A stretch of 12,426 bases of DNA from the IMG/VR virus record IMGVR_UViG_2690316131_000019; one strand, written 5' to 3'. The stretch comes from a virus (taxonomy: Duplodnaviria; Heunggongvirae; Uroviricota; Caudoviricetes). Positions 2,556-6,762 of this stretch are shown in pieces. Under the pieces are notes generated by a model. The model saw only the letters and a program-made list of their open reading frames with translations, made no database searches and had not been told where the DNA came from. The position numbers were made by a program, and so were the translations under genes. Numbering within the stretch: position 1 is the stretch's first letter; each line of letters opens with the position of its first letter.

Positions 2556-2987
2556 CTATTCAGGTATTTCAATTCCAAAACCATCTGCATCCCATGAGTT
2601 TTCACAGATGATGTAACCTAGTTCATTGAGCTTATTAAATGTTTTTTCAAAGATGATCTGGTAATCATTATCTGCAAGTGATTCCAGTTCAAGGTCATTA
2701 AGGTTTATATAAAAACTTGTATGTCCAAGTGTTATTTTCTTATTAATTTCATTAAAGGTTCTTTTGAAAATAATATTTGATATTTCATGTCGTGCATTGT
2801 TTGCAATGATTTTTGCTTCATAAGCAGAAATTACGTCATCTTCATGAATATCTTTCAGAAAGCTGGTGTCAAGACGTTGTACTATTTCAGCGTTCATTGA
2901 TCGCTTATTGGCTTTTGCAGAAATTTCTATTTTTTCTTTTACTTCGACGGGAAGTCTGATCCTTAGTTGTGGATCTTCTCTGCTCAT
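2556..2987 (-). CDS. mnt: Mnt-like ribbon-helix-helix repressor with an extended C-terminal domain
   Basis: N-terminal segment MSREDPQLRIRLPVEVKEKIEISAKANKRSMNAEIVQRL matches the Arc/Mnt RHH signature (recalled P22 Mnt: DDPHFNFRMPMEVREKLKFRAEANGRSMNSELLQIV). Preferred start is the ATG at 2987, preceded by GGTGAAG; the ORF track extends to 3017. Product is 143 aa, against about 82 aa for P22 Mnt. Confidence 0.65.
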   Translation of the reverse strand: MSREDPQLRIRLPVEVKEKIEISAKANKRSMNAEIVQRLDTSFLKDIHEDDVISAYEAKIIANNARHEISNIIFKRTFNEINKKITLGHTSFYINLNDLELESLADNDYQIIFEKTFNKLNELGYIICENSWDADGFGIEIPE

Positions 2988-3024
2988 GTTCTTCACCAAA
3001 TATTGAGTTACTTGCAATGATTGA

Positions 3025-3072
3025 AGTATGCCTCACCGTGTGCTTGACATCAATGACGCACGGTGTGACAAT
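3025..3072. promoter_or_regulatory. Divergent, overlapping sigma70 promoters (Pant-like on +, Pmnt-like on -) with CACGGTG/CACCGTG operator-like repeats
   Basis: Plus strand: TTGACA (3044-3049), 17-bp spacer, TGT-GACAAT extended -10 (3064-3072). Minus strand: TTGATG (rc of 3048-3053), 17 bp, CATACT (rc of 3025-3030). The 7-mer CACGGTG or its complement occurs at 3034-3040 (inverted), 3060-3066, 3083-3089 and 3288-3294. Confidence 0.45.
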
Positions 3073-3107
3073 TATTTTGCCCCACGGTGGGGCTAAGGAG
3101 ATATGAA

Positions 3108-3275
3108 ATGCAAAAAGCAAAAGAGATGTGTCAACGACGAGTTCGTTTTCCGGACGATGTGAAGTTAGCTATTGAAAGAAATGGCGAAAAAGAATGCCGA
3201 AAGTTCAATACAGAGATTATCTATCAGCTGAGGAAAGTGTATGGACTCACTGGTGAGAAGAATAGCGTGGCATAA
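3108..3275 (+). CDS. arc: Arc-like ribbon-helix-helix repressor
   Basis: 55-codon ORF with AGGAG (3096-3100) 7 nt before the ATG at 3108. Sequence QRRVRFPDDVKLAIERNGEKECRKFNTEIIYQLRKVYG has the Arc-type beta-strand/helix pattern (recalled P22 Arc: FNLRWPREVLDLVRKVAEENGRSVNSEIYQRV). Divergent from the mnt-like gene and directly upstream of the ant-like gene, as in P22 immI. Confidence 0.6.
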   Translation: MQKAKEMCQRRVRFPDDVKLAIERNGEKECRKFNTEIIYQLRKVYGLTGEKNSVA

Positions 3276-3347
3276 AACAGCGAAGCCCCACGGTGGCCAG
3301 ACCGTCAGGGCTTCAGTATCGTAAAACTACGTATAGGAATTAACGAC
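3272..3347 (-). ncRNA. sar: Candidate sar-like antisense RNA covering the ant ribosome-binding site
   Basis: Minus-strand promoter inside the 5' end of ant: TTGATA (rc of 3377-3382), 17-bp spacer, TATACT (rc of 3354-3359), predicting a start near 3347. Minus-strand terminator hairpin (stem 3282-3288 / 3308-3314) followed by GCUGUUUUAU in the arc-ant spacer. Predicted ~75-nt transcript is antisense to the ant SD (AGGAA 3335-3339); by recollection P22 sar is about 69 nt and similarly placed. Confidence 0.4.
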
Positions 3348-4286
3348 ATGACGAGTATAGCAACAGCAGTATCTACTATCAACGTGCCATTCCACGGCGC
3401 AGAGCTTTATGTTGTCAATCACAACGGCGAACCGTATACCCCAATGAAACCTATCGTTGAGGGAATGGGGCTAGACTGGAAATCTCAACATAAGAAGATT
3501 TCTCAACGCTTCTCGAAGGGTATGGTGGAAATCACCATACCTTCTGCCGGTGGGGGGCAAGCCATGATTTGTATGGCTTTACGAAAATTGGCAGCTTGGT
3601 TGAACAGCATCAGCCCTAACAAAGTCCGCCCTGAAATCCGCGACAAGGTAATCCAGTATCAGGAAGAGTGTGACGATGTGCTCTACGAGTACTGGACTAA
3701 AGGCCATGTGGTTAACCCACGCAAAGCTAAAAAGGCGTTGCCGGGTAAAATAACAACTGAACAGCAGGAAGCCATTAAACAACTCGTCATGAGTCGCGGT
3801 CAGTCTCTGCCAAAAGAAAAACAGGCTAAGGCGATGATCACCATGTGGTCGTCACTGAAATCTCATTTTGGCTGTTCGTACAAAGAAATTGGTGAAGATC
3901 AATTTGCCGAAGCGTTGTCTCTTGTTGCTCGGGTTCCGCTTGAAGGGGAGTATCTCCCTGCTGGATCTGCATCAGAGAATGATGAAGTGGCAGTCAAGAT
4001 GTTAGATGCGCTTCGTGAGGCAATTAAAACACAGACAAAATGTTATGGTTATCCATTGAAGCCAGGCTACCGCAGTCTGATTCATTCGCCGTCGGGTGTT
4101 CTCGGCCTGACGGAGAACTCACTGCTGATGAATCTGCTGAACCAGTTACAGGAAGACGGGCACGACGTATCGGGCGCGGCGGCGGAGCTGACCACCATGT
4201 TCTGCTACATCGTCGGTGTGAGCAAATGCCTGCGTGATATCCAGACGCACGCGGAGTACATCAACGACAAGGCTGGGTTCTTCTGA
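3348..4286 (+). CDS. ant: Phage antirepressor (P22 Ant-like: N-terminal Ant domain plus conserved C-terminal module)
   Basis: 312-codon ORF with AGGAA SD 8 nt upstream of the ATG. N-terminus (SIATAVSTINVPFHGAELYVVNHNGEPYTPMKPIVEGMGLDW) resembles P22 Ant-type antirepressor N-domains. Lies downstream of arc as in P22. The C-terminal ~78 aa are nearly identical to the C-terminus of the 5460..6170 product. Confidence 0.7.
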   Translation: MTSIATAVSTINVPFHGAELYVVNHNGEPYTPMKPIVEGMGLDWKSQHKKISQRFSKGMVEITIPSAGGGQAMICMALRKLAAWLNSISPNKVRPEIRDKVIQYQEECDDVLYEYWTKGHVVNPRKAKKALPGKITTEQQEAIKQLVMSRGQSLPKEKQAKAMITMWSSLKSHFGCSYKEIGEDQFAEALSLVARVPLEGEYLPAGSASENDEVAVKMLDALREAIKTQTKCYGYPLKPGYRSLIHSPSGVLGLTENSLLMNLLNQLQEDGHDVSGAAAELTTMFCYIVGVSKCLRDIQTHAEYINDKAGFF

Positions 4287-4304
4287 CGGGCGGCGGCACA
4301 GGGA
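4050..4304. repeat. Left arm of a ~255-bp inverted repeat (3' end of ant plus 18 bp past its stop)
   Basis: The reverse complement of 5444..5698 matches 4050..4304 with only a few mismatches by manual alignment, including the stop codon and the downstream TGACGGGCGGCGGCACAG. Confidence 0.85.
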
Positions 4305-4335
4305 CGTGCAAAACGAAACTAGCGTGACATGTCAC

Positions 4336-4612: not shown

Positions 4613-5158
4613 CTATTCCTTCCATTTATCAGAAAAAAGATCTTCTTCTAAAGGCATTGGTTCTGTTTTTGTTTTCTCAAAGAATTGATAACTGATAGTG
4701 ATTGCTTCCTCTTTAAACTCTTCTTGCTCAGTTATGTTGTGAGCATCTGCGTCAACAAAAAACATAACCAGCGCATCACGATTGTGATTTACCGAATAAA
4801 CTAAAAAGCAATCACTTGTTGGTATGCATTTTACTTGTACAGACGCTATATTTTTCCATGCATCCCAAGATGATTTTTTACCAGTGTGTTTTTTATCACT
4901 ATCTTCTGGAATATAGTCTTGGTTATCGACATGAGTATGCCTGACATTTAGTTTAAGCATTTCTGTCGGACGAGCAAATGCAGCATCTTTACCAAGAGAT
5001 GGATGATATCCCGTTTTCCAATACTGGGCAAAGGCATCAGATACTTTCTTCAGCTCAAGATCAGATGCACAAAGGGCCGAGAAATTTTGCGTATGCAATA
5101 CTCGACCCTTATATCTGACAATTTGATTTTTATCATTCTGCGACGCAGACGAACTCAT
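4613..5158 (-). CDS. YafO-like toxin-domain protein (candidate ribosome-dependent mRNA interferase / abortive-infection effector)
   Basis: 181-codon ORF starting at the ATG at 5158 with AAGGAAA SD. The central region (GKDAAFARPTEMLKLNVRHTHV ... TSDCFLVYSVNHNRDALVMFFV) resembles the recalled conserved YafO blocks (GRDALYDDSF..FERVAHIHL ... DEAHLVYCQ..AWLLIAIL). AT-rich relative to the flanking repeats. Assignment is from memory, not a search. Confidence 0.4.
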   Translation of the reverse strand: MSSSASQNDKNQIVRYKGRVLHTQNFSALCASDLELKKVSDAFAQYWKTGYHPSLGKDAAFARPTEMLKLNVRHTHVDNQDYIPEDSDKKHTGKKSSWDAWKNIASVQVKCIPTSDCFLVYSVNHNRDALVMFFVDADAHNITEQEEFKEEAITISYQFFEKTKTEPMPLEEDLFSDKWKE

Positions 5159-5312
5159 AATTTTCCTTATTGTTACGAGAATCAAAGAAAGCGCGGGATA
5201 CGCGACTTGCGTGATCTTTTGTCATAGTAACTTTTACGTACTCTACGCTTCCATTGAAAGAACGTCTTGCGGCAGCTTGCGCTCTACGCATCTGCAATTT
5301 TTCGTTTCGCAT
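5133..5312 (-). CDS. Small basic ORF (59 aa) overlapping the start of the YafO-like gene; possible cognate partner or regulator
   Basis: ATG at 5312 is preceded by GAGGT with 6-nt spacing. Hand translation gives MRNEKLQMRRAQAAARRSFNGSVEYVKVTMTKDHASRVSRAFFDSRNNKENYEFVCVAE, ending 26 nt inside the downstream gene. It falls just below the 60-aa cutoff of the ORF track. No recognised family. Confidence 0.2.
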   Translation of the reverse strand: MRNEKLQMRRAQAAARRSFNGSVEYVKVTMTKDHASRVSRAFFDSRNNKENYEFVCVAE

Positions 5313-5443
5313 GACATTACCTCATATCTCATAAGTTCATTACACGGATTAATAAAAATGAAACCAATCCGTTTACCCTTGAGGTAATAGTACGCTATTC
5401 ACCCACAGTCTGCAATCTGTACAGAATTATTTAAAGGCACATC

Positions 5444-5698
5444 TCTGTGCCGCCGCCCGTCAGAAGAATCCTGCTTTGTCGTTGATGTACTCCGCGTGCG
5501 TCTGGATATCACGCAGGCATTTGCTCACACCGACGATGTAGCAGAACATGGTGGTCAGTTCCGCCGCCGCGCCCGATACGTCGTGCCCGTCGTCCTGTAA
5601 CTGGTTCAGCAGATTCATCAGCAGTGAGTTCTCCGTCAGGCCGAGAACACCAGACGGCGAGTGAATCAGGCTGCGGTAGCCGGGCTTCAGTGGGGCAC
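5444..5698. repeat. Right arm of the ~255-bp inverted repeat (3' end of the Bro-N antirepressor gene plus 16-18 bp past its stop)
   Basis: Reverse complement aligns with 4050..4304 at roughly 95% or better identity by eye. Confidence 0.85.
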
Positions 5699-6170
5699 TG
5701 TAGGTTTTGTTCTCTATCTTCATTGCCTGTATTACTGCTGACGCCGTGGCGTTGGCTACCTGGTCGGCAACCATCTTTATGCGTTCTTCCTGCGGGAGCG
5801 AGTTTTTAATGTAACTTCCGGTGCGGCGGATCTGAGGAAGAACCTCACCTGTAACCCATTTACGAAAGCGGTAGGGGATAGTGCCTGGTGTCACCGCATC
5901 GCGGCAGCGGAGGATCAGTGTGTAGAGGCCTGACTCGGAGATGATGTTGATCTCTTTTACTCGGCTGTCAAAAATTGCACGATGTTCATGCCCTATGTTG
6001 AACATAGACCTTTCATCATCATCCAGTTTTTCAAGTGATTGGGTGACGTTTTGGATACGCAGCGCACTACAAACGTCTTGGGCTACAAACCATGGTTGGC
6101 CATCGATAATGATGGAACGGATAGGGTTAACAGATTCAAATTTGAAGATGGCAGTTTGAGCATTAGCCAT
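5460..6170 (-). CDS. Antirepressor with Bro-N-type N-terminal domain and the shared Ant C-terminal module
   Basis: 236-codon ORF from the ATG at 6170, with GGAG 9 nt upstream; the ORF track extends to a GTG at 6185. N-terminus FKFESVNPIRSIIIDGQPWFVAQDVCSALRIQNVTQSLEKLDDDER is a typical Bro-N / phage antirepressor N-domain. The C-terminal 78 aa match the ant C-terminus. Confidence 0.7.
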   Translation of the reverse strand: MANAQTAIFKFESVNPIRSIIIDGQPWFVAQDVCSALRIQNVTQSLEKLDDDERSMFNIGHEHRAIFDSRVKEINIISESGLYTLILRCRDAVTPGTIPYRFRKWVTGEVLPQIRRTGSYIKNSLPQEERIKMVADQVANATASAVIQAMKIENKTYSAPLKPGYRSLIHSPSGVLGLTENSLLMNLLNQLQDDGHDVSGAAAELTTMFCYIVGVSKCLRDIQTHAEYINDKAGFF

Positions 6171-6321
6171 GGTGGTTATCTCCACTTAGTGATTTTAATC
6201 ACCACCGCAACGCCAATTACTGGTGGTGAACTGGACAAGGTTGGCGTACCGGCCTAAGTGGTACCGGCGTCCTTTCGGACCCCTGCCCAGCCCACCATAA
6301 TTCGGATATGGCTGTGCTTAA

Positions 6322-6485: not shown

Positions 6486-6743
6486 TTATCTGGTTTGTTT
6501 TCGTAATTGTTCGGCACAATAGTCGAGATGTGTTTGCAGATCCTGCATAGACATCTGTGAGCTGGTGACGTAGTTAATCAGTGCAGTCAGTTCGGCAAGT
6601 GGGCCATCGACATTAAATCCATCCTTATCGAGATCCCGGAGTAATTTCATCAAGAGCGATCCCTCCACCAGTGATCTGACGCCTCCCGGCGTGTGAATCC
6701 TTTCGGTAAATCCGTCTTCCAGTGGATAGTGATACTGCTGCAT
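6486..6743 (-). CDS. Small stand-alone antirepressor-like protein (85 aa), a free copy of the Ant C-terminal module
   Basis: ATG at 6743 with GGAGAAG SD. The product (..HTPGGVRSLVEGSLLMKLLRDLDKDGFNVDGPLAELTALINYVTSSQMSMQDLQTHLDY..) aligns with the shared C-terminal module of the two larger antirepressors (HSPSGVLGLTENSLLMNLLNQLQEDGHDVSGAAAELTTMFCYIVGVSKCLRDIQTHAEY) at roughly 40-45% identity by eye. Confidence 0.55.
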   Translation of the reverse strand: MQQYHYPLEDGFTERIHTPGGVRSLVEGSLLMKLLRDLDKDGFNVDGPLAELTALINYVTSSQMSMQDLQTHLDYCAEQLRKQTR

Positions 6744-6762
6744 CTTATCTTCTCCATGCAAT

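Follow-up and report, generated by a model that had tools for sequence, protein, structure and literature searches.

A long Mnt-type repressor with an added C-terminal domain and three predicted operators in an immI-type cassette of an E. coli prophage

Background

Why is the Mnt-like repressor of an E. coli prophage 143 aa long, when Mnt of phage P22 has 83, and what might the added residues do? The gene that raises this question is found in a 12,426-nt stretch of Caudoviricetes DNA (IMG/VR record IMGVR_UViG_2690316131_000019), referred to here as the window. The window is a near-exact match to Escherichia phage TL-2011b, and the E. coli prophage with the repressor gene is a relative of that phage. 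The features of the locus are listed in Table 1.

Table 1. Features of the repressor gene and the adjoining cassette; positions are those of the window
Feature	Position	Strand	Detail or basis
Long mnt-type repressor gene	2556..2987	minus	143 aa + stop; ORF list, RefSeq, PHROG 1388
Ribbon-helix-helix (RHH) DNA-binding domain, residues 2-46	2850..2984	minus	Pfam PF03869, PDB 1mnt, AF2 helices
Long helix (predicted), residues 55-87	2727..2825	minus	aligned with P22 Mnt 54-83; AF2; conservation profile
Acidic beta-alpha-beta-beta subdomain (predicted), residues 88-143	2559..2726	minus	AF2: strand 91-95, helix 106-123, strand 136-140
Inferred Pmnt	3025..3053	minus	-35 TTGATG (3053-3048), -10 CATACT (3030-3025)
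Predicted operator O3	3030..3044		core CACCGTG at 3034-3040; fills the 17-bp Pmnt spacer
Pant-like promoter	3044..3072	plus	TTGACA, 17 nt, GACAAT; scan, 10/12 matches; conserved in alignment; laid out as in P22
Predicted operator O2	3055..3069		GACGCACGGTGTGAC; Pant spacer and -10; about -44 from inferred Pmnt start
Predicted operator O1	3079..3093		GCCCCACGGTGGGGC; perfect 15-bp palindrome; about +1 to +15 of Pant
Arc-like small RHH gene (Arc55), 55 aa	3108..3275	plus	weak Pfam Arc and PHROG Arc-like matches
sar antisense RNA	3279..3346	minus	Rfam RF00262, 44.8 bits (gathering score 43), model 1-68/68
sar promoter	3382-3354	minus	TTGATA-17-TATACT; promoter scan; inside 5' end of ant
Antirepressor gene ant	3348..4286	plus	Pfam P22_AR_N, E 7.6e-45; PHROG 524 'anti-repressor Ant'

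The repressor gene

RefSeq gives the protein as WP_000085730.1 ('Arc family DNA-binding protein', 143 aa), with coordinates identical to those of the open reading frame. The ATG at 2987 is the start of the gene, because 49 homologues show little or no variation in the first 13 residues read from it, MSREDPQLRIRLP. A TTG at 3017 would add ten residues and give a protein of 153 aa; it is ruled out by this invariance, and also by its location within the inferred promoter and leader. PHROG 1388 covers the protein from end to end (profile positions 1-143 on residues 1-143, E 5.1e-72) and is labelled 'unknown function'. The PHROG family and the RefSeq name already record the existence of this family; neither gives a function, and neither defines the C-terminal domain (CTD) described below.

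The TL-2011b deposit (JQ011317, locus L001 of our set) has one extra G in codon 9 of the repressor gene (about 6006-6010, which is about 2961 in the window), where it reads AAGGGATC as against AAGGATC. The extra G breaks the frame, and a shorter 'hypothetical protein' is therefore annotated there. It is either a sequencing error or the mark of a pseudogene.

Directly downstream of the repressor, at 1902-2519 on the minus strand, is a membrane-protein gene (187-205 aa; PHROG 8033, unknown function) with no match in Pfam. In P22, the corresponding position next to mnt belongs to the superinfection-exclusion gene sieA.

Length and spread of the family

A search of 5.8 billion proteins by word index yielded 262 relatives. 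Among the best 120 of these, 115 are 140-155 aa long and are 58-69% identical to it over the full length; the source genera of the best 120 include Yersinia, Enterobacter, Salmonella, Citrobacter, Klebsiella, Proteus and Serratia. One cluster of relatives from Y. pestis is found on 557 contigs, and one from Enterobacter on 759. Cluster representatives at 50% identity were also searched exhaustively with a profile, and 394 clusters were found at E <= 1e-10; a CTD-only HMM detected the domain in 80 of the best 149 representatives, and the median length of these 80 is 141 aa. Relatives are encoded in at least 504 IMG/VR stretches, and the gene together with its control region is present in 36 of 5,426 complete E. 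coli genomes (at >=95% identity). IMG/VR searches with single distant proteins (P0126, P0145 and P0152) returned nothing useful. When the CTD profile was searched on its own against a large protein database, every match also carried an Arc RHH domain.

An earlier note on this DNA, made from the sequence alone, had described the protein as almost twice the expected length. This is true only in comparison with P22 Mnt; 143 aa is the norm in the repressor's own family. The note had also asked whether homologues would prove the length to be normal for a family with a known oligomerisation fold: the length is indeed the family norm, but the fold of the CTD is not a known oligomerisation fold. The note had offered a fusion as one explanation; a one-off fusion does not fit an architecture that is the norm of a broad family and a CTD that is found only behind Arc-type RHH domains. 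The immI switch of Enterobacterales prophages seems to occur more often with the long form of Mnt than without it.

The DNA-binding domain and alignment with P22 Mnt

The N-terminal part of the protein is an RHH domain. Pfam Arc (PF03869) matches residues 2-46 with 54.5 bits (cut-off 20.4; E 1.1e-14), PDB entry 1mnt matches residues 3-45 (E 3.5e-7), and AF2 predicts the two RHH helices at residues 14-26 and 31-46. For comparison, the sequence of P22 Mnt was taken from AF217253. BLASTP gives a colinear alignment of residues 1-86 of the repressor with P22 Mnt in its full length (residues 1-83; 32% identity, 59% positives, pairwise E 3e-14); similarity is weak in the helix part. PHROG 795, the family to which the mnt genes of P22 belong, matches residues 1-84. 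At the level of sequence, homology of the repressor's RHH domain with that of P22 Mnt is strongly supported.

P22 Mnt is reportedly a tetramer on its 17-bp operator, joined through a C-terminal helix (work of the Sauer and Kaptein laboratories). Given the colinear alignment, the predicted helix at residues 55-87 sits at the position of this tetramerisation helix, and it would correspond to it as its counterpart. According to the earlier note, some 90 residues for which P22 Mnt has no obvious counterpart follow the RHH segment. An RHH domain (PF03869) and an extra part do exist, but the count was too high; by BLASTP and PHROG 795, the part without a counterpart is about 57 residues (87-143). 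Likewise, residues 55-143 cannot all be regarded as extra, as about one third of them (helix 55-87) align with the tetramerisation helix.

The immI-type cassette

The repressor gene is divergent from the Arc55 gene, which is followed by ant. The sar RNA has a GC hairpin terminator at its end, as seen by folding. It overlaps the ribosome-binding site that serves the ATG at 3348. On this account 3348 is to be preferred as the start of ant to the RefSeq start, which corresponds to 3384 in the window. Since mnt, divergent promoters, Arc55, sar and ant are all present, and in the gene order known from P22, the region is a complete homologue of the P22 immI region. That the long repressor would be the equivalent of Mnt and would repress the arc-ant operon is well supported by these comparisons. 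The description 'Mnt-like repressor' is thus borne out by the Pfam Arc and 1mnt matches, the colinear alignment with Mnt, and the divergent arc and ant genes with sar.

The arrangement is widespread. Of 88 related loci, 86 have a divergent homologue of Arc55, and 118-130 nt separate it from the start of the repressor gene. Unlike in P22, the cassette here is also inserted in siphovirus and epsilon15-like prophages; in lambda-like prophages of Y. pestis and HK97-like prophages of Enterobacter, the three-gene cassette lies among the tail genes. In four distant members of the family (loci L091, L092, L097 and L099), the repressor gene is divergent from at least one small ORF, RHH-like in three of the four, and then a longer gene. 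The longer gene is of KilA-N type in L091, pRha in L092 and pRha/ANT in L097; in L099 it is unannotated. Two members have another setting, with an excisionase or early genes opposite them: the first is found in a Pseudomonas inovirus, the second on a contig with Mu-like genes.

The Pseudomonas phage is PfAC03, a filamentous Pf phage (OR801191; locus L002, 3929-4423). It encodes a homologue of 164 aa with 40% identity over residues 1-125, which occupies the repressor position opposite the excisionase; the three putative CAC-S-GTG operators and the overlapping -35 element are kept. The repressor of PfAC03 differs in type from the characterised repressors Pf4r and Pf5r of Pseudomonas Pf phages. 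These are 88-aa P2 C-like proteins, and are ruled out as members of the family.

Other features are found further downstream in the window. A 292-bp inverted repeat (91% complementary) is present at 4018-4309 and 5437-5728. It consists of the C-terminal roughly 80 codons common to ant and a convergent Bro-N antirepressor-like gene (5460-6185, minus strand), and the 1.1-kb segment enclosed by its arms could be inverted or recombined through it. The C-terminal module of ant is present a third time, as a diverged copy that stands alone at 6486-6761 on the minus strand. Between the repeat arms is a 190-aa ORF (4613-5185, minus strand) which matches Pfam YafO_toxin slightly above the cut-off (E 9e-6). 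Another YafO_toxin gene adjoins a distant homologue of the repressor (L099, 2116-2547).

Predicted operators and promoters

The motif CACSGTG occurs four times in the 12.4-kb window, where 1.1 occurrences are expected by chance, and all four are within 3034-3295. Three of them are in the 120-bp spacer between mnt and arc, with centres at 3037, 3062 and 3086, that is, 24-25 bp apart. The fourth (CACGGTG, 3289-3295) was considered as a distal operator and rejected; it is part of the sar terminator stem, and is absent there in other groups of loci. The distances of the three sites from the start of the repressor gene (about -102, -78 and -53) are constant in about 50 distinct loci, and O2 is almost invariant. 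The conserved block reads GCCyCACsGTGrGGCA ... TGTCACACCGTGCGTCATTGnnGTCAACCCCACsGTGGGGCATAAT.

Comparison of sequences strongly supports three putative operators, each a palindrome of 15-17 bp with the core CAC-S-GTG that is also found in the mnt operator of P22. The P22 operator, AGGTCCACCGTGGACCT, has its core (CCAC-S-GTGG) and its position in common with O1, as both lie over the start of Pant. The motif occurs once in the P22 region, whereas three operators are predicted here. All three palindromes are kept in the distant relatives L092, L097 and L098 and in the inovirus (L002), and the CATTGnTGTCAA element is also kept in L097 and L002. There is no Arc55 gene near the sites in the inovirus, and the sites there therefore most simply belong to the protein that combines RHH and CTD.

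The two promoters lie back to back, with -35 hexamers that overlap by 2 bp. We infer Pmnt and the transcription starts from consensus: the pattern CATTGNTGTCAA...CATAAT is conserved in about 50 loci and in the distant relatives L002 and L097. In the window, Pmnt falls below the threshold of the promoter scan; its -10 hexamer here is CATACT instead of CATAAT.

The strand residues predicted to face the DNA are the same in both repressors of the cassette. They are Q7, R9 and R11 in the long repressor (strand sequence QLRIRLP) and Q9, R11 and R13 in Arc55 (QRRVRFP); Arc55 of related loci has Q, R/K and R. In P22 Mnt they are H, N and R. Because the DNA-facing residues are equal, the long repressor and Arc55 may compete for common operators, unlike Arc and Mnt of P22.

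The C-terminal domain

When the full repressor is modelled by AF2 with the family alignment, a low-confidence linker (residues 47-54) is followed by a helix of 33 residues (55-87), a strand (91-95), a second helix (106-123) and a hairpin at the end (126-127 and 136-140). Residues 52-143 modelled alone, with 43 diverse sequences, reach a mean pLDDT of 94.7 and a pTM of 0.82. These values indicate that the 92 residues would form a single, autonomous, compact domain. Mnt is typically a short protein (about 83 aa) with a coiled-coil tail, and the model of the long repressor is different: the helix equivalent to the coiled coil is predicted within a compact monomeric alpha/beta domain (pTM 0.82), not as a free coiled coil, and is joined by an extra acidic unit of 57 residues with beta-alpha-beta-beta order.

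Across the 43 diverse members, strong conservation in the CTD is limited to A58, G88, L120, G124, Y125 and a hydrophobic pattern. No polar residue is conserved among them, and no His, Cys, Asp or Glu is found at a fixed position. The lack of conserved polar residues argues against a conserved small-molecule pocket; the conservation pattern looks structural, not pocket-like. The N-terminal half of the long helix has a stripe of alanines (A55, A58, A62 and A65), small residues with a/d-like spacing. The alignment suggests that the face of the beta-sheet without helix cover is polar and variable.

The acidity that the earlier note had seen at the C-terminus is real: the net charge is -5 over the last 15 residues and -10 over residues 88-143. 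It is not, however, a property of a mere tail. The last residues of the repressor form a predicted beta-strand and not a disordered tail, and the whole of 88-143 is acidic throughout the family: in the 43 diverse members its net charge ranges from -14 to -1, and the median is -9; elsewhere the family net charge is +2 (RHH) and +3 (long helix).

None of the 43 diverse CTDs matches a Pfam family, while all of them match PHROG 1388. A profile of the CTD found no genuine relative in the PDB. The matches that Foldseek returned among viral models were all weak, the best with E 4e-3, and the phage proteins matched are uncharacterised and 85-95 aa long. In the literature nothing was found on long Mnt or on the CTD. 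The suggestion of an added folded domain behind the RHH segment is upheld by the model of residues 52-143 alone. The profile and structure-prediction searches that had been proposed for this part of the protein thus produced a confident fold, but no Pfam or PDB relative, and no function that could be assigned.

Role of the C-terminal domain

We lean, at somewhat better than even, towards a Mnt-equivalent repressor of an immI-type cassette in which the CTD is an oligomerisation or cooperativity module for the three operators. In the lysogen, arc-ant would be kept silent by occupancy of O1 and O2, and that of O3 would limit the repressor's own synthesis. The CTD would consist of a long tetramerisation helix of Mnt type, buttressed by the acidic beta-alpha-beta-beta unit. 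It would join RHH dimers into tetramers on each palindrome, as P22 Mnt does, and would possibly link neighbouring operators 24-25 bp apart in a manner resembling lambda CI on OR1-OR3. That the CTD joins RHH dimers seems most likely because it holds the homologue of the Mnt tetramerisation helix, because the palindromes, at 15-17 bp, match in length the P22 operator that binds a tetramer, because the operator spacing calls for longer-range cooperativity through a flexible linker, and because conservation is structural rather than pocket-like. Against such a role, the model places helix 55-87 inside a monomeric globule, the predicted fold is not a known oligomerisation fold, and the sheet face without helix cover seems polar and variable. 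Arc55, with its equal DNA-facing residues, may also fill some of the operators.

The lambda OR region has three operators of roughly 17 bp between divergent promoters, with centres 24-25 bp apart. The resemblance to lambda is one of possible working and not of homology. Both repressors have an N-terminal DNA-binding domain and a C-terminal globular domain, and the operator geometry is alike; one operator lies in the repressor's own promoter and one is about -42 to -44 from it. The long repressor differs from CI in that it has an RHH and not a helix-turn-helix, has no peptidase S24 or RecA-cleavage domain, and would control an antirepressor operon where CI controls the lytic early operon. AmrZ, NikR and TraM likewise combine an RHH with a C-terminal (oligomerisation) domain; AmrZ matches the RHH of the long repressor both by sequence and by fold.

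Oligomerisation does not require residues 88-143 to be acidic throughout the family, and this acidity is a hint of some other role; the acidic surface could contact RNA polymerase from O2 or be a docking surface for a partner. It is conceivable, if on balance unlikely, that the CTD is a partner-binding or signal-receiving domain, with a phage or host protein or RNA polymerase docking on this surface. The repressor would then be inactivated and ant made inducible, or else repressor bound at O2 would activate Pmnt. The persistence of a median charge of -9 throughout the family would suit such a domain, as would a folded, autonomous CTD without known function, its weak structural matches to stand-alone uncharacterised phage proteins of 85-95 aa, and the distance of O2 from the inferred Pmnt start (about -44), which is typical of an activator. 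However, no candidate partner gene co-occurs consistently, as the genes downstream of the repressor vary between the loci examined, and no individual polar residue is conserved. The neighbouring antirepressors vary as well: P22_AR_N, Bro-N, KilA-N and pRha N-domains are all found beside related CTDs, which argues against specific binding of Ant by the CTD. These types are Pfam labels; single-linkage clustering by N-terminus merged the antirepressor genes into one cluster. It is improbable that the acidic CTD is a receiver through which a host or phage factor, or a stand-alone CTD-like protein of an incoming phage, switches the repressor off. If this were true, the antirepressor would be released, and thousands of enterobacterial prophages would have an SOS-independent route of induction.

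There is a precedent for a sensor in NikR, in which an RHH is combined with a ligand-binding tetramerisation domain. If the CTD sensed a small molecule in this way, ant expression, and hence induction, would be coupled to a metabolite or metal. We consider this very doubtful, as no His, Cys, Asp or Glu has a fixed position in the 43 diverse members and there is no match to a ligand-binding family of Pfam; a NikR-like C-terminal domain of ACT/ferredoxin type with conserved metal ligands was not found in the repressor. Weak Pfam matches to FitA-like_RHH, RHH_5 and HicB, the label 'partition protein ATPase' on PHROG 795 and 2685, and YafO-toxin-like genes in the window (4613-5185) and beside a distant homologue would be in keeping with a type II antitoxin or a ParG-like partition protein, the C-terminal part of which binds a toxin or a ParA ATPase. 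The match to FitA-like_RHH scores 22.8 against a cut-off of 27, however, and the repressor operon has no toxin or ParA gene in any of the loci examined. No ATPase gene for a ParG-type system was found in the window or in related loci, and toxin-binding tails are typically disordered, whereas the CTD is predicted to be folded. PHROG 795 is the P22 mnt family itself, so the label 'partition protein ATPase' is a mis-annotation. On gene context and sub-threshold scores we reject the antitoxin and ParG readings, to which we give next to no credence.

Significance

Antirepressor cassettes decide whether a prophage is silent, and mediate cross-talk between co-resident prophages. The long form of Mnt is common, and is found in E. 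coli as well as in Yersinia pestis, Enterobacter, Salmonella, Citrobacter and Proteus. From the position of its gene, a specialist would have predicted its overall role, the repression of ant in the manner of Mnt. Its CTD of 92 residues has neither a function nor a domain definition in databases, and no solved structure. The cassette is further distinguished by a predicted three-operator switch that is unusually well conserved. Definition of the CTD would lead to a Pfam-type entry and to a tractable model of a three-operator switch made from RHH parts; it would also show whether ant expression responds to anything beyond repressor concentration.
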